DNA of 32,000 bases from Candidatus Saccharimonas aalborgensis (lineage in GTDB: Bacteria; Patescibacteriota; Saccharimonadia; Saccharimonadales; Saccharimonadaceae). Shown here piece by piece: positions 2,676 to 30,347 of the stretch (within the stretch, counting starts at the first letter, position 1; each line of letters starts with the position of its first letter). Made by a program: the position numbers and the translations under genes. The notes under the pieces were generated by a model. That model was not told where the DNA came from, did no database searches, and was given only the letters and a program-made list of their open reading frames with translations. The stretch lies in NCBI RefSeq assembly GCF_000392435.1, contig NC_021219.1:30001-62000 (forward strand), written 5' to 3'.

Positions 2676-2700
2676 GTATGCATTAGCACTTGGAGCTTCA

Positions 2701-2812
2701 CGTCGTGGAGGTGAGAACTGCCAGTGGTAGTTCGGAAACGAATCTTCCGACGAAAGCTATGCTTTCTACGCGCGAGTTCGGGGGTCGCGGAACGTGACCA
2801 AGTCCTCTTATC
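2701..2812 (+). repeat. tRNA-Leu-linked conserved structured element, copy A (candidate ncRNA or att remnant)
   Basis: Copy A shares GTGGNGGTGAGAACTGCC...GTTCG..AA.GAAACG with copy B (7947-8066) and aligns with copy C (7620-7740). Hairpin H1 is at 2715-2733 and H2 (GAAAGC-TAT-GCTTTC) at 2752-2766. It ends in CAAGTCCTCTTATC (2799-2812), identical to T-loop/acceptor positions 2618-2631 of the upstream tRNA. Confidence 0.55.
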
Positions 2813-2839
2813 ATTGGTGGAGTATTAGAGTAAACTGCG

Positions 2840-3826: not shown

Positions 3827-3922
3827 TATGGATCAAGAATACCCTATGCTTTGACATATATCAATATACATTTGATAAGATGTTACCAAGAGAATACATA
3901 ACCATGAGCTATATGGTAGACT

Positions 3923-4507
3923 GTGAGTATGGCAATGAGTTCAAAAGGATTTACGATTCTCGAGTTAATTGTCGTAATTGTCGTTATCGGAACTCTCACC
4001 ACAATCACGGTTGTCGCATTCAATGGCATCCAAGATCGTGCCTATATGTCTCAGATATACGCCAACGTGAGTAGCACCGCAAAGTTAATGAACAGCTATC
4101 ATATATTCAACAGAACCTACCCAATTGTTGCAAACACAAACTGTATCGGAAAAGTGAGCGATTACCCGGCGACGGGAGGGTTTGCGGCGGGGTCTTGCGG
4201 TATTGATACAAGCAATAACTCCTCATGGGGACAAGCAAATGACTCGTTTATGACGATGCTCGGCACAATGGGGACCGTACCAACCGGTACAACACCCCGG
4301 ATTGCCACCCATTACGGGATAAAGTATCGCGGCATTTATTTCCAGATAAATGACTACCCCAAAGGATCGGCGTGGCCCGACTCGGTATTCTTTGAATTTG
4401 CCGTACCGGGCAAGCTAGACTGCCAGGGAAAACCTTACATTTCCCGTTATGACTCGTCGGGTAATTCGACCTATTGTTCGTACTACTTCAACGCAGAGGG
4501 GAACTAG
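3923..4507 (+). CDS. Type IV pilin-like protein (prepilin N-terminal methylation motif)
   Basis: The N-terminus ..SSKG/FTILELIVVIVVIGTLTTITVVAF is a classical class III signal with a hydrophobic helix. The true start may be the ATG at 3929 or 3935 rather than the GTG at 3923. Confidence 0.8.
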   Translation: MSMAMSSKGFTILELIVVIVVIGTLTTITVVAFNGIQDRAYMSQIYANVSSTAKLMNSYHIFNRTYPIVANTNCIGKVSDYPATGGFAAGSCGIDTSNNSSWGQANDSFMTMLGTMGTVPTGTTPRIATHYGIKYRGIYFQINDYPKGSAWPDSVFFEFAVPGKLDCQGKPYISRYDSSGNSTYCSYYFNAEGN

Positions 4508-4525
4508 TCCCACACCGCTTAAGAT

Positions 4526-6759: not shown

Positions 6760-6866
6760 GGATTTCCCCCATTAGACTCTTTAGGCACAGTATAGCATAA
6801 CGGGGATGGCTCGCCAATCGTGCTTTTGGTTGACCTAGCTGGTGCATTCCCTTTACACTACTCTCT

Positions 6867-7577
6867 ATGTCGCACCAACCAGAGGCAGTCCGTGTCCCTT
6901 ATCTATTGCGTCCCCTCACCATCGATACGATGGATGAGCAACGCCCCTATTACGTGCGCCCAGGATCCATATCGATCGCGCCAGATAGTGGCGCACTCAC
7001 TCTCCAGGGAGGCGAAAAACTCAAACCCGCAAGCCTGCGTCCACCCGTCATGCTGGGTTATGTCGGTATCATGCTTGTCACTCTATTTGAGGGAGATGAC
7101 TGCACCCCGGTACGCGGGTATGTGGCAGATTTGAGGCGTATCGCAAATGGCAATCTCTTCGATACGGGCACCACTGCCGACATGCCAGGTGATCAGGAGG
7201 AGGCAAATTACTGGGAGGAAACAAGAAAGGCCGAACGTCCTATCGTTGCCTGTATTTCACGTGCTGCCATCAAGGGTGCTGAACTCATTTTCGATGGTGA
7301 CCCCCGCTTTGAGCCCGCAACACGAGAGCTGGCAGCCCTCGCCGACAAGCTTGAGGAGGAGCTCAAAAAAGAACAACTAAAAAAAGCAAAAAAGATGCGT
7401 ATCCCCAAATCACTAAAGGATACACCGTCAGCTGGCGGCTCAGACGATGACCCAGGAGACAAAGAGCCATTGAGCCCTCCGAGTGATAATCCGGATGATT
7501 CGGGCAAGGGCGGGACGAAGCTTAAAGTCCGCAAACATGGTCGCAGCGTGGAGCTAGAGACACTAGAGGATGATTGA
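6867..7577 (+). CDS. Hypothetical protein with an acidic/Lys-rich low-complexity tail
   Basis: 236-aa ORF. The start is uncertain, with an alternative ATG at 6930 (MDEQRPYY). No strong Shine-Dalgarno and no recognised domain. Confidence 0.5.
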   Translation: MSHQPEAVRVPYLLRPLTIDTMDEQRPYYVRPGSISIAPDSGALTLQGGEKLKPASLRPPVMLGYVGIMLVTLFEGDDCTPVRGYVADLRRIANGNLFDTGTTADMPGDQEEANYWEETRKAERPIVACISRAAIKGAELIFDGDPRFEPATRELAALADKLEEELKKEQLKKAKKMRIPKSLKDTPSAGGSDDDPGDKEPLSPPSDNPDDSGKGGTKLKVRKHGRSVELETLEDD

Positions 7578-7619: not shown

Positions 7620-7740
7620 GTGAAATTGGTATACACGTATGCCTTAGGTGAGAGCCGCCAGTGGCGGGTCGCAAGGGAGTCCACTCTTGAAAGCTGTGCT
7701 TTCAAAGATGTGACGACGGGGTCGCGCTAGCGTGACCATA
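7620..7740 (+). repeat. tRNA-Leu-linked structured element, copy C, fused to a 29-nt 5' fragment of tRNA-Leu(TAG)
   Basis: Positions 7620-7648 (GTGAAATTGGTATACACGTATGCCTTAGG) are identical to tRNA positions 7805-7833, covering the D arm to anticodon-loop position 37. The sequence then continues into the element. H1 (GAGCCGCC-AGT-GGCGGGTC) is at 7652-7670 and H2 (TTGAAAGC-TGT-GCTTTCAA) at 7687-7705. The 3' part CGGGGTCGCG..CGTGACCA matches copy A. Confidence 0.5.
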
Positions 7741-7795
7741 TGCTAGGCCATATGCTCCTCGTCGTACATTGCGATATAATGTCCTTACAAATTAT

Positions 7796-7880
7796 GCGGA
7801 TGTGGTGAAATTGGTATACACGTATGCCTTAGGAGCATATGCCTCACGGCGTGCTGGTTCAAGTCCAGTCATCCGCACCA
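7796..7880 (+). tRNA. tRNA-Leu (anticodon TAG), CCA encoded
   Basis: The acceptor stem is GCGGATG/CATCCGC. The anticodon arm TATGC-CTTAGGA-GCATA gives anticodon TAG. A long variable region is followed by the T arm GCTGG-TTCAAGT-CCAGT, then ACCA. Confidence 0.9.
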
Positions 7881-7915
7881 ACCATAGTACCGACCCTTGT
7901 GGTCGGTTTTATGGT
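7881..7915 (+). terminator. Intrinsic terminator after tRNA-Leu(TAG)
   Basis: The stem is CCGACC/GGTCGG with loop CTTGT, followed by TTTT. The outer arms are ACCATA/TATGGT. The architecture matches the terminator after tRNA-Leu(CAG). Confidence 0.6.
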
Positions 7916-7946
7916 TAGTAAGCGATACTTTGCTGTACCAGTACCC

Positions 7947-8066
7947 GCGGCGTGGTGGTGAGAACTGCCCGTCGGCAGTTCGCAAGGAAACGTCACCGAT
8001 GAGCTAGGCTCATCTGGCTGACTTTCGGGCCCGCAGAATGTGGGCAAGTCCAGTCATCCGCACCAA
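7947..8066 (+). repeat. tRNA-Leu-linked structured element, copy B, ending in a 22-nt copy of the tRNA 3' end
   Basis: H1 (GAACTGCC-CGTC-GGCAGTTC) is at 7962-7981 and H2 (GATGAGC-TAG-GCTCATC) at 7998-8014. An enclosing helix pairs GGTGA (7957-7961) with TCACC (7993-7997). The 3' end CAAGTCCAGTCATCCGCACCAA (8045-8066) is identical to tRNA positions 7860-7881. The 5' end GCGGCGTGGTGGTGA resembles the tRNA 5' end GCGGATGTGGTGA. Confidence 0.55.
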
Positions 8067-8070
8067 ATGA

Positions 8071-8092
8071 AATGAGCGTCATGCTCATTTTT
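8071..8092 (+). terminator. Intrinsic terminator after element copy B
   Basis: The stem is AATGAGC/GCTCATT with loop GTCAT, followed by a T-run. Its position suggests that copy B is transcribed on the + strand. Confidence 0.55.
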
Positions 8093-8108
8093 ATTACATT
8101 ATTCATTA

Positions 8109-14442: not shown

Positions 14443-14496
14443 CCCCGCCACCCGTTGTAGGCACACAGCCTCCGGGTGACCGGGGCTGTTTGCTTA
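14441..14496 (+). terminator. Terminator module R1 (first copy of a ~57-nt direct repeat)
   Basis: AGCCCCGCCACCCGTTGTAGGCACACAGCCTCCGGGTGACCGGGGCTGTTTGCTTA. The hairpin C-AGCC-(T)-CCGG GTGA CCGG-GGCT-G is at 14466-14488, followed by TTTGCTT. Confidence 0.65.
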
Positions 14497-14945: not shown

Positions 14946-15002
14946 AGCCCCGATCACCCGTTGCAGGCACACAGCCTCCGGGTGACCGGGGCTGTTTGCT
15001 TA
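14946..15002 (+). terminator. Terminator module R2 (second copy of the ~57-nt direct repeat)
   Basis: AGCCCCGATCACCCGTTGCAGGCACACAGCCTCCGGGTGACCGGGGCTGTTTGCTTA. It is identical to R1 except for one indel and about two substitutions. The hairpin is at 14972-14994. Confidence 0.65.
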
Positions 15003-21236: not shown

Positions 21237-21353
21237 GAATCTAAACCCCTCCCCCGACAGACAGTTGGCCCTGATGGGCCAAGGCCCGCCAAGGCCAAGG
21301 CTAATCACTTAGCGGCGGGCCGGTTGTCTGGAGTGGGGAGGAGTTTGAGATTC
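21237..21353 (+). repeat. Long imperfect palindrome repeat, copy 1 (candidate structured RNA or MITE-like element)
   Basis: GAATCTAAACCCCTCCCCCGACAGACAGTTGGCCC...GGGCCGGTTGTCTGGAGTGGGGAGGAGTTTGAGATTC. It lies between the convergent PBP and PIN-TRAM genes. A second copy is at 30231-30347. Confidence 0.6.
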
Positions 21354-30230: not shown

Positions 30231-30347
30231 GAATCTCAACCCTCCTCCGACAGACAGTTGGCCCTGATGGGCCAAGGCCCGCCAAGAGCGAAGGCTGATT
30301 TAGTTAGCGGCGGGCCGGTTGTCTGGAGTGGGGAGAGGATGGGTTTG
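30231..30347 (+). repeat. Long imperfect palindrome repeat, copy 2
   Basis: A 40-nt block (CCGACAGACAGTTGGCCCTGATGGGCCAAGGCCCGCCAAG) and a 29-nt block (AGCGGCGGGCCGGTTGTCTGGAGTGGGGA) are identical to copy 1. The central loop and outer arms differ. Confidence 0.6.

Follow-up and report, generated by a model that had tools for sequence, protein, structure and literature searches.

An 89-nt covarying element family in truncated tRNA gene copies of Saccharibacteria: a probable non-autonomous mobile element

The window analysed here, a stretch of 32,000 nucleotides from Candidatus Saccharimonas aalborgensis (assembly GCF_000392435.1, contig NC_021219.1, positions 30,001 to 62,000 of the forward strand), contains three copies (A, B, and C) of a structured 89-nt element, which lie beside its two tRNA genes, tRNA-Leu(CAG) and tRNA-Leu(TAG), as called by ARAGORN and Rfam. 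The element family, named E here, is previously undescribed, and the literature searched in full text contained no description of it. Comparison of these copies with their relatives suggests that E is probably a non-autonomous, structure-dependent mobile element, which invades tRNA genes and persists only beside a regenerated copy of the gene.

Structure and distribution of the E family

All three copies were located on the + strand, at 2711-2799 (A), 7648-7737 (C), and 7958-8045 (B). A sequence-only reading of the window had described them as an element of about 115 nt with two hairpins, H1 and H2; the copies proved to be real and alignable, and the sequences of H1 and H2 were as written there. 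The common 5' core that it had pointed out (GGTGAGA.C.GCC.GT.G) occurred exactly three times, against 0.19 occurrences expected by chance. The length had been overestimated, as the conserved element comprises 89 nt and the other ~25 nt are fragments of the neighbouring tRNA. The covariance model R1, which was built from relatives, scored copies A, C, and B at 87.3, 81.1, and 79.4 bits, respectively, and its next match in the window reached 17 bits.

The alignment used for the fold contained 77 distinct copies in 100 columns, with a mean identity of 71%, and the counts of pairs given here refer to these copies. From 5' to 3', the fold consists of a GUGA tail, the helix P1 of 8 bp, a GCAAG or GGAAA linker, the long helix P2 of 18 bp, a GG linker, and the third hairpin P3, of 7-8 bp, which has a GAA loop and includes a fixed G.U pair. 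In copy A, P1 is formed by 2715-2722 and 2726-2733, P2 by 2739-2778, and P3 by 2781-2787 and 2791-2797, plus the pairing of C2799. P1 is the former H1, and both H1 and H2 pair and covary as proposed, except that H2 turned out to be only the tip of the longer, 18-pair P2. The stretch CGGGG(G)TCGCG..CGTGACCA, which had been described as shared by A and C, is real and is the third hairpin, yet it is not restricted to these two copies, for it covaries in B too (GGTCGCG-GAA-CGTGACC in A and GCCCGCA-GAA-TGTGGGC in B). The helix that had been drawn around H1 received no support from covariation, and its 3' strand belongs to P2.

Compensatory changes on both sides of a pair were observed in 22 of the 33 pairs. 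Pairing was seen in 95.5% of the cells, compared with 28-39% when the partners were slid by 1-3 columns; doubly changed cells numbered 431, compared with 40-57 in the slid controls, and none of 500 shuffles reached the observed score. This abundance of compensatory changes bore out the earlier view of a structured conserved element rather than random spacer. The G.U pair of P3 at columns 83:93 was fixed in 69 of the 77 copies, and the last pair of P3, formed by G79 and a nucleotide of the target, was G-C in 48 copies and G-U in 25. Because the conserved pairs include G.U, the fold was assigned to the tRNA-sense strand only. The own sequence of E is 87 nt long (UGAGA...GUGAC), lies between a G and a C or U that are derived from the target, and encodes nothing. 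The P2 region was also considered as a pairing partner of the invariant 5' GUGAGA and rejected, since the candidate partner is variable and already paired within P2. Look-alikes of the hammerhead, hairpin, twister, and K-turn motifs, assessed by eye, were not conserved across the copies, and no ribozyme of Rfam matched.

The family was sought in one genome per prokaryotic species with a pattern made from the positions common to the three window copies. The pattern found 110 loci, compared with roughly five expected by chance according to our own estimate, and 100 of them came from 73 assemblies of Saccharibacteria (TM7)/Saccharimonadales; the other 10 were scattered in other phyla and look like chance, and none of these ten was among the matches of R1. 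In all, 111 loci were fetched and labelled with L-numbers (L002 and so on). The covariance model, built from the alignment of 77 copies, recognised 122 copies in the first 100 loci, 9 in the rest, and 3 in the window, so that the search for further homologs, which had been proposed with the sequence-only reading, yielded about 134 copies within the 73 Saccharibacteria assemblies. In about 25 of the model matches, all missed by the pattern, the 5' GUGAG and the linkers GCAAG and CGGGG are retained, and P1 and the tip of P2 covary freely. Nearly all copies scored 80-107 bits, few were degenerate, and the number per assembly ranged from 1 to at least 7. No copy was found by the pattern scans of viral contigs, where the one pattern match (L111) failed the covariance model. 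With Rfam 15 (4227 models), only the two tRNA-Leu genes were found in the window at the gathering score, and nothing but noise appeared on the strand of E even at E<=10; no family matches E, which agrees with the earlier statement that it is none of transfer-messenger RNA (tmRNA), signal recognition particle RNA, RNase P, 6S, or a riboswitch. Subfamilies with an extra 18-40-nt hairpin inside P3 (e.g. AAATTTGCAGAGCAAATT), in which the element measures ~108-120 nt, were observed in L002, L029, L049, L053, L062, L070, and L100 and in L067 and L075.

Target sites and unit geometry

At tRNA genes, E sits in a truncated tRNA copy, and an intact tRNA of the same species is located 66-89 nt upstream or 37-70 nt downstream. 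In 35 of the 36 loci with exact flank matches, the 5' flank and the first G of E matched the tRNA up to position x, and the tRNA resumed at x+3; therefore, UGAGA...GUGAC takes the place of the two central bases in a site of the form G-NN-C or, at times, G-NN-U. The dinucleotides replaced were GT, TT, CG, CA, and AG. The insertion sites were at tRNA positions 17/20, 22-25/25-28, 36-38/40-41, 46/49, and 52-55/55-57, or at the equivalents in long-arm tRNAs, all of which are helix/loop boundaries of the folded tRNA in the D-arm, anticodon loop, variable loop, and T-loop. The closing pair or pairs of P3 are formed by the target-derived C or UC with the GG linker of E.

The sense orientation was found in 73 of 74 copies. 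The lone antisense copy (L058, 944-1032) is antisense to a neighbouring tRNA-Phe, has inverted tRNA segments on its flanks, and probably arose by local inversion. The link to tRNA-Leu in particular, which the window had suggested, did not hold, as tRNAs of at least 14 amino-acid classes carry E; E units were found in at least 20 tRNA species, covering Leu, Lys, Pro, Gln, Val, Ser, Arg, Gly, Glu, His, Tyr, Ile, and others.

ARAGORN showed that almost every copy is adjoined by an intact tRNA, in two fixed geometries. The 'up' unit consists of a tRNA 5' fragment from +1, E, 7-13 nt more of the tRNA, a small hairpin, a -10-like box, and the intact tRNA. The 'down' unit begins with the intact tRNA, a hairpin pairing through its 3' strand with the CCA end, and a degenerate inverted tRNA 3' part, and continues with a few nucleotides of the T-stem 5' strand, E, the tRNA from T-loop to CCA, and a terminator; the insertion was in the T-loop in all 'down' units. 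The intact gene has its own signal in both types, namely the -10 box in 'up' units and the terminator hairpin in 'down' units. Direct repeats of tRNA segments, with an intact tRNA regenerated, were observed in the window and in about 60 loci.

The segment added along with E at tRNA sites is called S, and the added block (E+S) measured 172-193 nt. In 'up' units, S was 87.7 +- 5.7 nt while the insertion position x spanned 17-62, the spacer becoming shorter as x moved 3' (r = -0.85; permutation p = 1.4e-4, with 14 independent tRNA/site combinations). S is thus as long as E in these units, and the two tRNA starts are about 176 bp apart. In 'down' units, S was 99 +- 6 nt. Among seven tRNA-Lys D-loop units, the identity was 93% for E, 90% for the tRNA, 41% for the spacer, and 24% for the upstream flank. 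Judged from these sequences, E would be either under purifying selection in place or continually renewed.

Some copies were observed in other contexts. In L068 (6840-7442), L077 (4098-4678), and L061 (5775-6012), E is outside a tRNA context and lies between ..GGGGTACCGG and GCATAACGACTGATTTG, with ~170 nt of conserved helix-forming sequence on its 3' side. The first two are copies in one complete genome (CP064992.1), 112 kb apart, with 95% identity over 604 nt. Neither Rfam nor ARAGORN gave a match in this region, which may be a structured RNA gene of unknown kind that was also invaded by E. In L003 (3089-3178) and L057 (488-578), E lies between ..GATTGGGGCG and GAGCCTGCCCCTCC in a T-arm-like context, where ARAGORN called no tRNA or tmRNA, even with E removed.

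Comparative evidence for mobility

Insertion of E into E was found in four loci (L054, L090, L097, and L002), always in the P3 5' strand, at G|GU|C or G|CC|C. The nested copies had the same orientation as the host E, and 2 nt were lost with no duplication. One of these insertions can be compared with the window itself, which shares 91-98% identity with a contig from a metagenome-assembled genome (MAG) of Ca. Saccharimonas aalborgensis; L022 and L097 are adjacent pieces of this contig. Copy C of the window has the empty site GGGGTCGCG (G7720|GT|C7723), whereas L097 has the filled site GGG[TGAGA...GTGAC]CGCG, with the nested copy at 1444-1534. The difference cannot be written as a pure insertion. 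Since a precise loss restoring GT is unlikely, the simplest account is that the nested copy was inserted recently, in the lineage of the MAG.

The second difference between the two genomes concerns a whole block. In the MAG (L022), the D-arm of tRNA-Leu(CAG) contains a block of 174 nt, which consists of E, a decayed segment of tRNA positions 28-50, a promoter spacer, and new tRNA positions 1-24; the window has an uninterrupted tRNA-Leu(CAG) behind the same upstream flank and no such block. The displaced fragment of L022 keeps the native A7 and the regenerated gene has G7, which is the pattern expected from a single crossover with an imported unit.

Further dynamic arrangements were seen at other loci. 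S-E-S and tandem (E+S) arrays were found in L084, L028, L106, L036, L018, and L092; the two S segments of L084 were 97% identical, and L028, L018, and L092 had more than one tandem (E+S) unit. L026 has a near full-length pseudo-tRNA-Leu with two elements, and L072 is its collapsed E x E product; the other E x E recombinant, L059, is a Lys/Leu chimera. A different arrangement was seen in L092 (the whole 862-nt piece) and L064 (1560-2130), where the 5' part of tRNA-Gln is present three times in tandem, one repeat with E and another with a different small insertion. Clustering of 965 open reading frames (ORFs) from the loci gave only syntenic neighbours and no protein linked to E, the largest ORF family being present in 8 of ~100 loci, and the window ORFs beside the E copies had no Pfam match. 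On this comparative evidence, E appears to be still moving.

The units of the window and their surroundings

The units and the relic described in this section are on the + strand. Copies A and B are the T-loop 'down' units of the two tRNA-Leu genes, and copy C is the anticodon-loop 'up' unit of tRNA-Leu(TAG). As had been read from the sequence, A and B each follow a tRNA-Leu with a T-run hairpin, and B has its own terminator.

The host gene of copy A is the intact tRNA-Leu(CAG) at 2552-2638 (ARAGORN; Rfam tRNA, 56 bits). It is followed by the long hairpin T1 (2635-2677), in which the 3' strand TATCGTTGGT pairs back with the tRNA end ACCAACGATA before a T-run, with a terminator-like site at 2646-2666; this architecture recurs, with compensatory changes, 3' of tRNA-Leu(TAG) and of tRNAs at other loci. 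The degenerate spacer at 2678-2710 is tRNA-derived, as shown by sequence comparison with 2552-2638, and contains the anticodon-arm-like TTAGCACTTGGAGCT and then CGTGGAG, which is the variable-arm end plus the T-stem 5' strand of tRNA-Leu(CAG), with an exact 9-nt match up to tRNA position 65. Copy A (2711-2799; R1 E=3e-16) is in the T-loop of the truncated tRNA-Leu(CAG) copy, between CGTGGAGG and CAAGTCCTCTTATC, the two halves of the T-arm. G2711 and C2799 are common to E and the tRNA (G53 and C56), and the junction is at x=64 and y=67 in the 87-nt tRNA. The duplicate of the T-loop, T-stem 3' strand, and acceptor start at 2799-2812 is a 14-nt exact match, and the sequence is divergent beyond it.

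The unit of copy C begins with the 5' fragment of tRNA-Leu(TAG) at 7620-7648 (tRNA positions 9-37), a 29-nt exact copy (100%) of 7805-7833. Positions 1-8 are gone in the window, and the full 1-37 is kept in the MAG relative (L097, 1336-1373). Copy C (7648-7737) lies in the anticodon loop after G37 of this fragment, with A38-G39 replaced, and the Leu-tag junction in relatives is 38/41. The 'up'-unit spacer (7737-7795) contains CATATGC (tRNA positions 40-46), a local duplication of 12 nt, and, at 7775-7780, a TATAAT box 16 nt ahead of the intact tRNA-Leu(TAG) (7796-7880; ARAGORN and Rfam), which is located between copies C and B. The starts of these two copies are 310 nt apart, and the same spacing recurs in L012, L007, L089, L078, L036, and L022.

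Three parts make up the region between tRNA-Leu(TAG) and copy B (7877-7957), in this order: the T1 hairpin (7881-7916), which pairs with the CCA end; an inverted, degenerate copy of the 3' part of the tRNA; and GGCGTGGTG, identical to the variable arm and T-stem 5' strand of tRNA-Leu(TAG) at 10 of 11 positions. Copy B (7958-8045) is in the T-loop of the truncated tRNA-Leu(TAG) copy, and its fold with flanks had z=-3.7. It is followed by an exact 22-nt duplicate of the tRNA-Leu(TAG) 3' end, from T-loop C56 to CCA plus 1 (8045-8066 = 7860-7881, 100%); the CCA-bearing end of copy B, for which processing or aminoacylation had been considered, is just this duplicate. The 29-nt and 22-nt exact repeats of tRNA-Leu(TAG) both have a period of 185 nt. 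The terminator hairpin and T-run at 8070-8093, seen from the sequence, close the unit, and in young units elsewhere T1 is repeated at that position.

A relic of an older 'up' unit was found at 2468-2500, upstream of the tRNA-Leu(CAG) promoter, where the GNRA hairpin TGCGTGAAACGCA is followed by GTAGACGCGCTAG (tRNA-Leu positions 19-31). In L080, this hairpin splits the D-loop of a tRNA-Leu fragment in the 5' flank of the element, and its occurrence in the D-loop of relic tRNA-Leu 5' fragments of two genomes may represent a second insertion type, of ~20 nt, in pseudo-tRNAs.

Other repeats of the window were also recorded. A second, unrelated repeat of ~100 nt (21244-21343 and 30237-30338) is 98-100% identical, can form a long branched hairpin (-62.4 kcal/mol, z=-5.4), and was absent among the 111 fetched loci. 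A 48-nt direct repeat (14449-14496 and 14955-15002) is 98% identical, with the copies 506 nt apart, and forms a stable hairpin (z=-3.1). Two segments of the window, 3844-4513 and 6838-7577, are missing from the otherwise syntenic contig of the Ca. S. aalborgensis MAG; the ORF of the former (3923-4507) matched the N-terminal methylation (pilin-type) motif only weakly and below threshold, and that of the latter (6867-7577) had no Pfam match.

Discussion

The suggestion of the sequence-only reading that the copies might be the conserved arm of a very small integrative element came close to what the data show. In the mechanism that we consider probable, the insertion of E alone would be the primary event, at G-NN-C/U of structured RNA genes, including the P3 base of E itself. 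Such an insertion would destroy the tRNA gene, assumed to be single-copy in these ~1 Mb genomes, and for this reason only the events beside a regenerated intact copy would persist. Recombination between the resulting repeats would then cause E+S blocks to be gained, lost, amplified, and exchanged. The strand-specific structure, the sense-only insertion, the highly expressed structured RNA targets, and the pairing of the E GG with the target C/UC suggest a folded single-stranded form, which could be E RNA with reverse transcription or single-stranded DNA (ssDNA) and would be handled by a trans-acting enzyme encoded elsewhere.

Several points weigh against this mechanism. No transposase, recombinase, or reverse transcriptase was linked to E among the ORFs of the loci, and the evidence for mobility is comparative throughout. 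The 174-nt difference could be a loss in the window instead of a gain in the MAG. Some of the 'invariant' positions were fixed by the seed pattern itself, though the ~25 copies found by the model only keep them. The conservation of E equals that of the neighbouring tRNA, between saturated flanks, and the same would be expected of a host-useful RNA gene under purifying selection. The near-fixed S in 'up' units is not predicted by insertion and survival of rare duplications; this 'ruler' of ~87 nt points to a unit-length circle, a ruler-like enzyme, or a length-constrained transcript, and none of the models tried accounts for the ruler together with the duplication-free nested insertions.

A further reading, which we hold only tentatively, is that E is a mobile RNA that acts at the RNA level in the manner of an intron; in a weaker variant, E would be the partner, as RNA or ssDNA, of a trans-acting recombinase of unrecognised kind that has its own ruler of ~87 nt. 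At the RNA level, a small structured RNA would pick its target via base pairing between its GG linker and the C/UC that follows the insertion site, would insert into folded tRNAs and other E RNAs by transesterification or by cleavage and ligation, and would reach the genome through reverse transcription and recombination. If this is true, E would be an 87-nt intron-like retro-element without a relative among group I, group II, and bulge-helix-bulge (BHB) introns.

It is also conceivable, if unlikely, that E is a host-useful small RNA gene family, co-transcribed with tRNA genes, in which the tRNA fragments serve as handles for processing or stability (a 'tRNA scaffold'). In 'up' units, the 5' tRNA fragment would give the promoter and the 5' end; in 'down' units, the end would be given by the 3' fragment, with its CCA and a terminator; and the conservation of E would come from a cellular function such as protein binding or tRNA metabolism; a mobile origin is compatible with it, E then being a domesticated element. 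Because the conservation of E matches that of the adjacent tRNA amid randomised flanks, a host function or domestication stays alive as an explanation, and the near absence of degenerate copies among scores of 80-107 bits points the same way. The G.U pairs and the sense orientation suit an RNA, 'up' units begin at the tRNA +1 and are preceded by a -10-like box, 'down' units finish with an exact CCA end and a terminator, and the near-constant unit from promoter to next tRNA (~176 nt) could be a transcript constraint. A host function is harder to reconcile with the patchy distribution (only 73 species representatives, with 1 to at least 7 copies each) and with the presence or absence of E within a species. 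Moreover, nested insertions break up P3 in the copy that receives them, the handles derived from tRNA are decaying or have lost parts (L084, L094), and the same site is held by different E subfamilies in related genomes (L038 compared with L056).

More doubtful is the proposal that the mobile unit is a mini-circle of ~176-190 bp containing E+S, in which E would be a folded attP-like site and S would target and repair the tRNA gene. A recombinase encoded elsewhere, for which Xer/integrase-type tyrosine or serine recombinases are candidates, would integrate and excise the circle, and the nearest analogies are integron cassettes with attC and the Xer-dependent integration of CTX phage. Such a circle would explain the exact tRNA-segment direct repeats that flank each block with the gene regenerated, the own promoter spacer and G7 variant brought by the L022 block, as in a Campbell-type integration, the tandem (E+S)n arrays, and the near-constant unit length. 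The crossover points lie in the anticodon and T-loops, which Williams reportedly described in 2002 as the classical integrase sublocations in tRNA genes, and structure is conserved over sequence, on one strand, as for attC. The nested copies without S and minus 2 nt are, however, unlike conservative site-specific recombination. At least 20 tRNA species and at least 6 positions would each require their own S, no recombinase gene was linked to E, and a double-stranded circle of 176 bp is very small.

That E is a tRNA-gene intron, self-spliced or protein-spliced, with interrupted copies that are or recently were functional, is very improbable. E does lie within tRNA sequence, in sense, at loop positions including 37/38-like sites, the tRNA-Leu of L026 with its two elements is near full-length, and the 5' GUGAG and 3' AC are faintly reminiscent of group II boundaries; on the other hand, the tRNA was 2 nt short after removal of E in the same 35 of 36 tested loci, the copies that contain E are truncated (in 'up' units, E usually has just 7-13 nt of tRNA behind it), ARAGORN called none of them while an intact gene adjoins almost every copy, and 89 nt is far below the size of group I/II introns, with no Rfam intron or ribozyme match at E<=10. 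The known intron classes failed for the same reasons. A group I intron has a P3-P8 core of about 200 nt or more and a precise exon junction, while E has three simple hairpins and its junction loses 2 nt; a group II intron has a 5' GUGYG, a domain V with an AGC triad and a bulge, and a domain VI with a branch A, while E begins with GUGAG and has no domain V-like 34-nt hairpin; neither had an Rfam match. The removal of E as a protein-spliced BHB intron would not restore the tRNA (x+3), and the copies are truncated.

Drift in decaying tandem tRNA duplications, with hairpins formed by chance, is next to untenable: the flanks are truly decaying partial duplicates with inverted segments, so this scenario, which had been raised with the sequence-only reading, applies to them, but the element itself has no tRNA homology and keeps the same fold in about 134 copies from 73 assemblies, with 431 doubly compensated cells compared with ~45 in slid controls.

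The other identities tried were rejected. The proposal of a tRNA-derived or tRNA-like RNA does not fit an element without tRNA homology, and ARAGORN and RF00005 called nothing at A, B, and C. A four-way junction can be folded for copy B, with a closing helix of 12 bp that has ACCA at its end, but this acceptor-like helix is unconserved, its 5' strand being degenerate or partly deleted in other loci. ARAGORN was negative for tmRNA in the window, and also in the unusual loci outside tRNA genes, whether E was left in place or removed (9 filler options). A miniature inverted-repeat transposable element does not apply, as the ends GTGAGA.../...GTGACC are not inverted repeats and the nested insertions lose 2 nt with no target duplication. 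Tandem-inversion-duplication fits the direct-inverted-direct spacers of 'down' units and fails for 'up' units and the fixed S. S is not a target-site duplication, since E is followed by tRNA sequence and not by the start of S, and the nested insertions have no duplication.

Each of the nearest analogues of E fails at least one defining test. The integrative elements that target tRNAs (tyrosine integrases of phages, integrative and conjugative elements, and genomic islands) also insert at the anticodon loop or T-loop, carry in a replacement tRNA segment, regenerate the intact gene, and leave the displaced fragment as a direct repeat, and archaeal elements of the pNOB8/SSV type leave tRNA fragments (PMC3293823, PMC9897764). 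The E block, in contrast, has only 172-193 nt, without an integrase or other gene; its 5'-part duplications ('up', with promoter) are as common as those of the 3' part, and E also uses D-arm and variable-loop sites, loses 2 target nt, and inserts into itself without duplication. Transposing tRNA introns and split or disrupted tRNA genes are found in the Archaea (Thermoproteales and Caldiarchaeum; PMC4090602, PMC3293823), where one short sequence likewise occupies many non-canonical positions (D-arm, anticodon, and T-loop) of many tRNAs in sense and tRNA fragments occur. E differs from them in that it is bacterial, belonging to the Candidate Phyla Radiation (CPR), and lacks the BHB motif, and in that its excision would not restore the tRNA, the interrupted copies being pseudogenes beside an intact gene.

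The miniatures derived from IS200/IS605, namely palindrome-associated transposable elements (PATEs) and the repetitive extragenic palindromes (REP) moved by REP-associated tyrosine transposases (RAYT; 'peel and paste'), resemble E in being non-coding, about 100 nt long, and free of terminal inverted repeats and target duplication, with strand-specific hairpins that tolerate G.T pairs and orientation-specific insertion; they are mobilised in trans. They insert 3' of a fixed tetra- or pentanucleotide with no target loss, whereas E uses G-NN-C/U, deletes NN, and targets folded RNA genes, and no Y1 transposase was linked to E among the ORFs of the loci. The integron attC and the CTX-phage attP(+) share with E the precedence of structure over sequence, the one active strand, and a small cassette-like unit, here E+S. 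Unlike attC, the E consensus has no core sites (RYYYAAC ... GTTRRRY), no integron platform is known for E, the targets are tRNA genes, and nested insertions lose 2 nt. Small RNAs linked to tRNAs (3' external transcribed spacer small RNAs and tRNA-scaffolded RNAs) are found inside a tRNA transcription unit with tRNA-like processing signals around, as E would be; they are single-locus and spacer-derived, whereas E is multi-copy with insertion polymorphism and nesting. To our knowledge, no element unites a sense-only insertion at helix/loop boundaries of structured RNA genes, an exact loss of 2 nt, and an obligatory regenerated gene copy of near-fixed length.

The list of non-coding features that we know of in CPR/Patescibacteria is very short, and E adds to it a well-supported, covarying structured element. 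In practice, the R1 model picks out the tRNA fragments by which tRNA annotation is confused, shows where recombination hotspots lie in Saccharibacteria MAGs, and gives strain-level markers. If E is a mobile element as proposed, Saccharibacteria genomes of ~1 Mb would tolerate an active selfish element that attacks tRNA genes. If the intermediate is an RNA, no intron-like mobile RNA smaller than E would be known, and E would be a bacterial counterpart to the unexplained spread of archaeal tRNA introns and split tRNAs.

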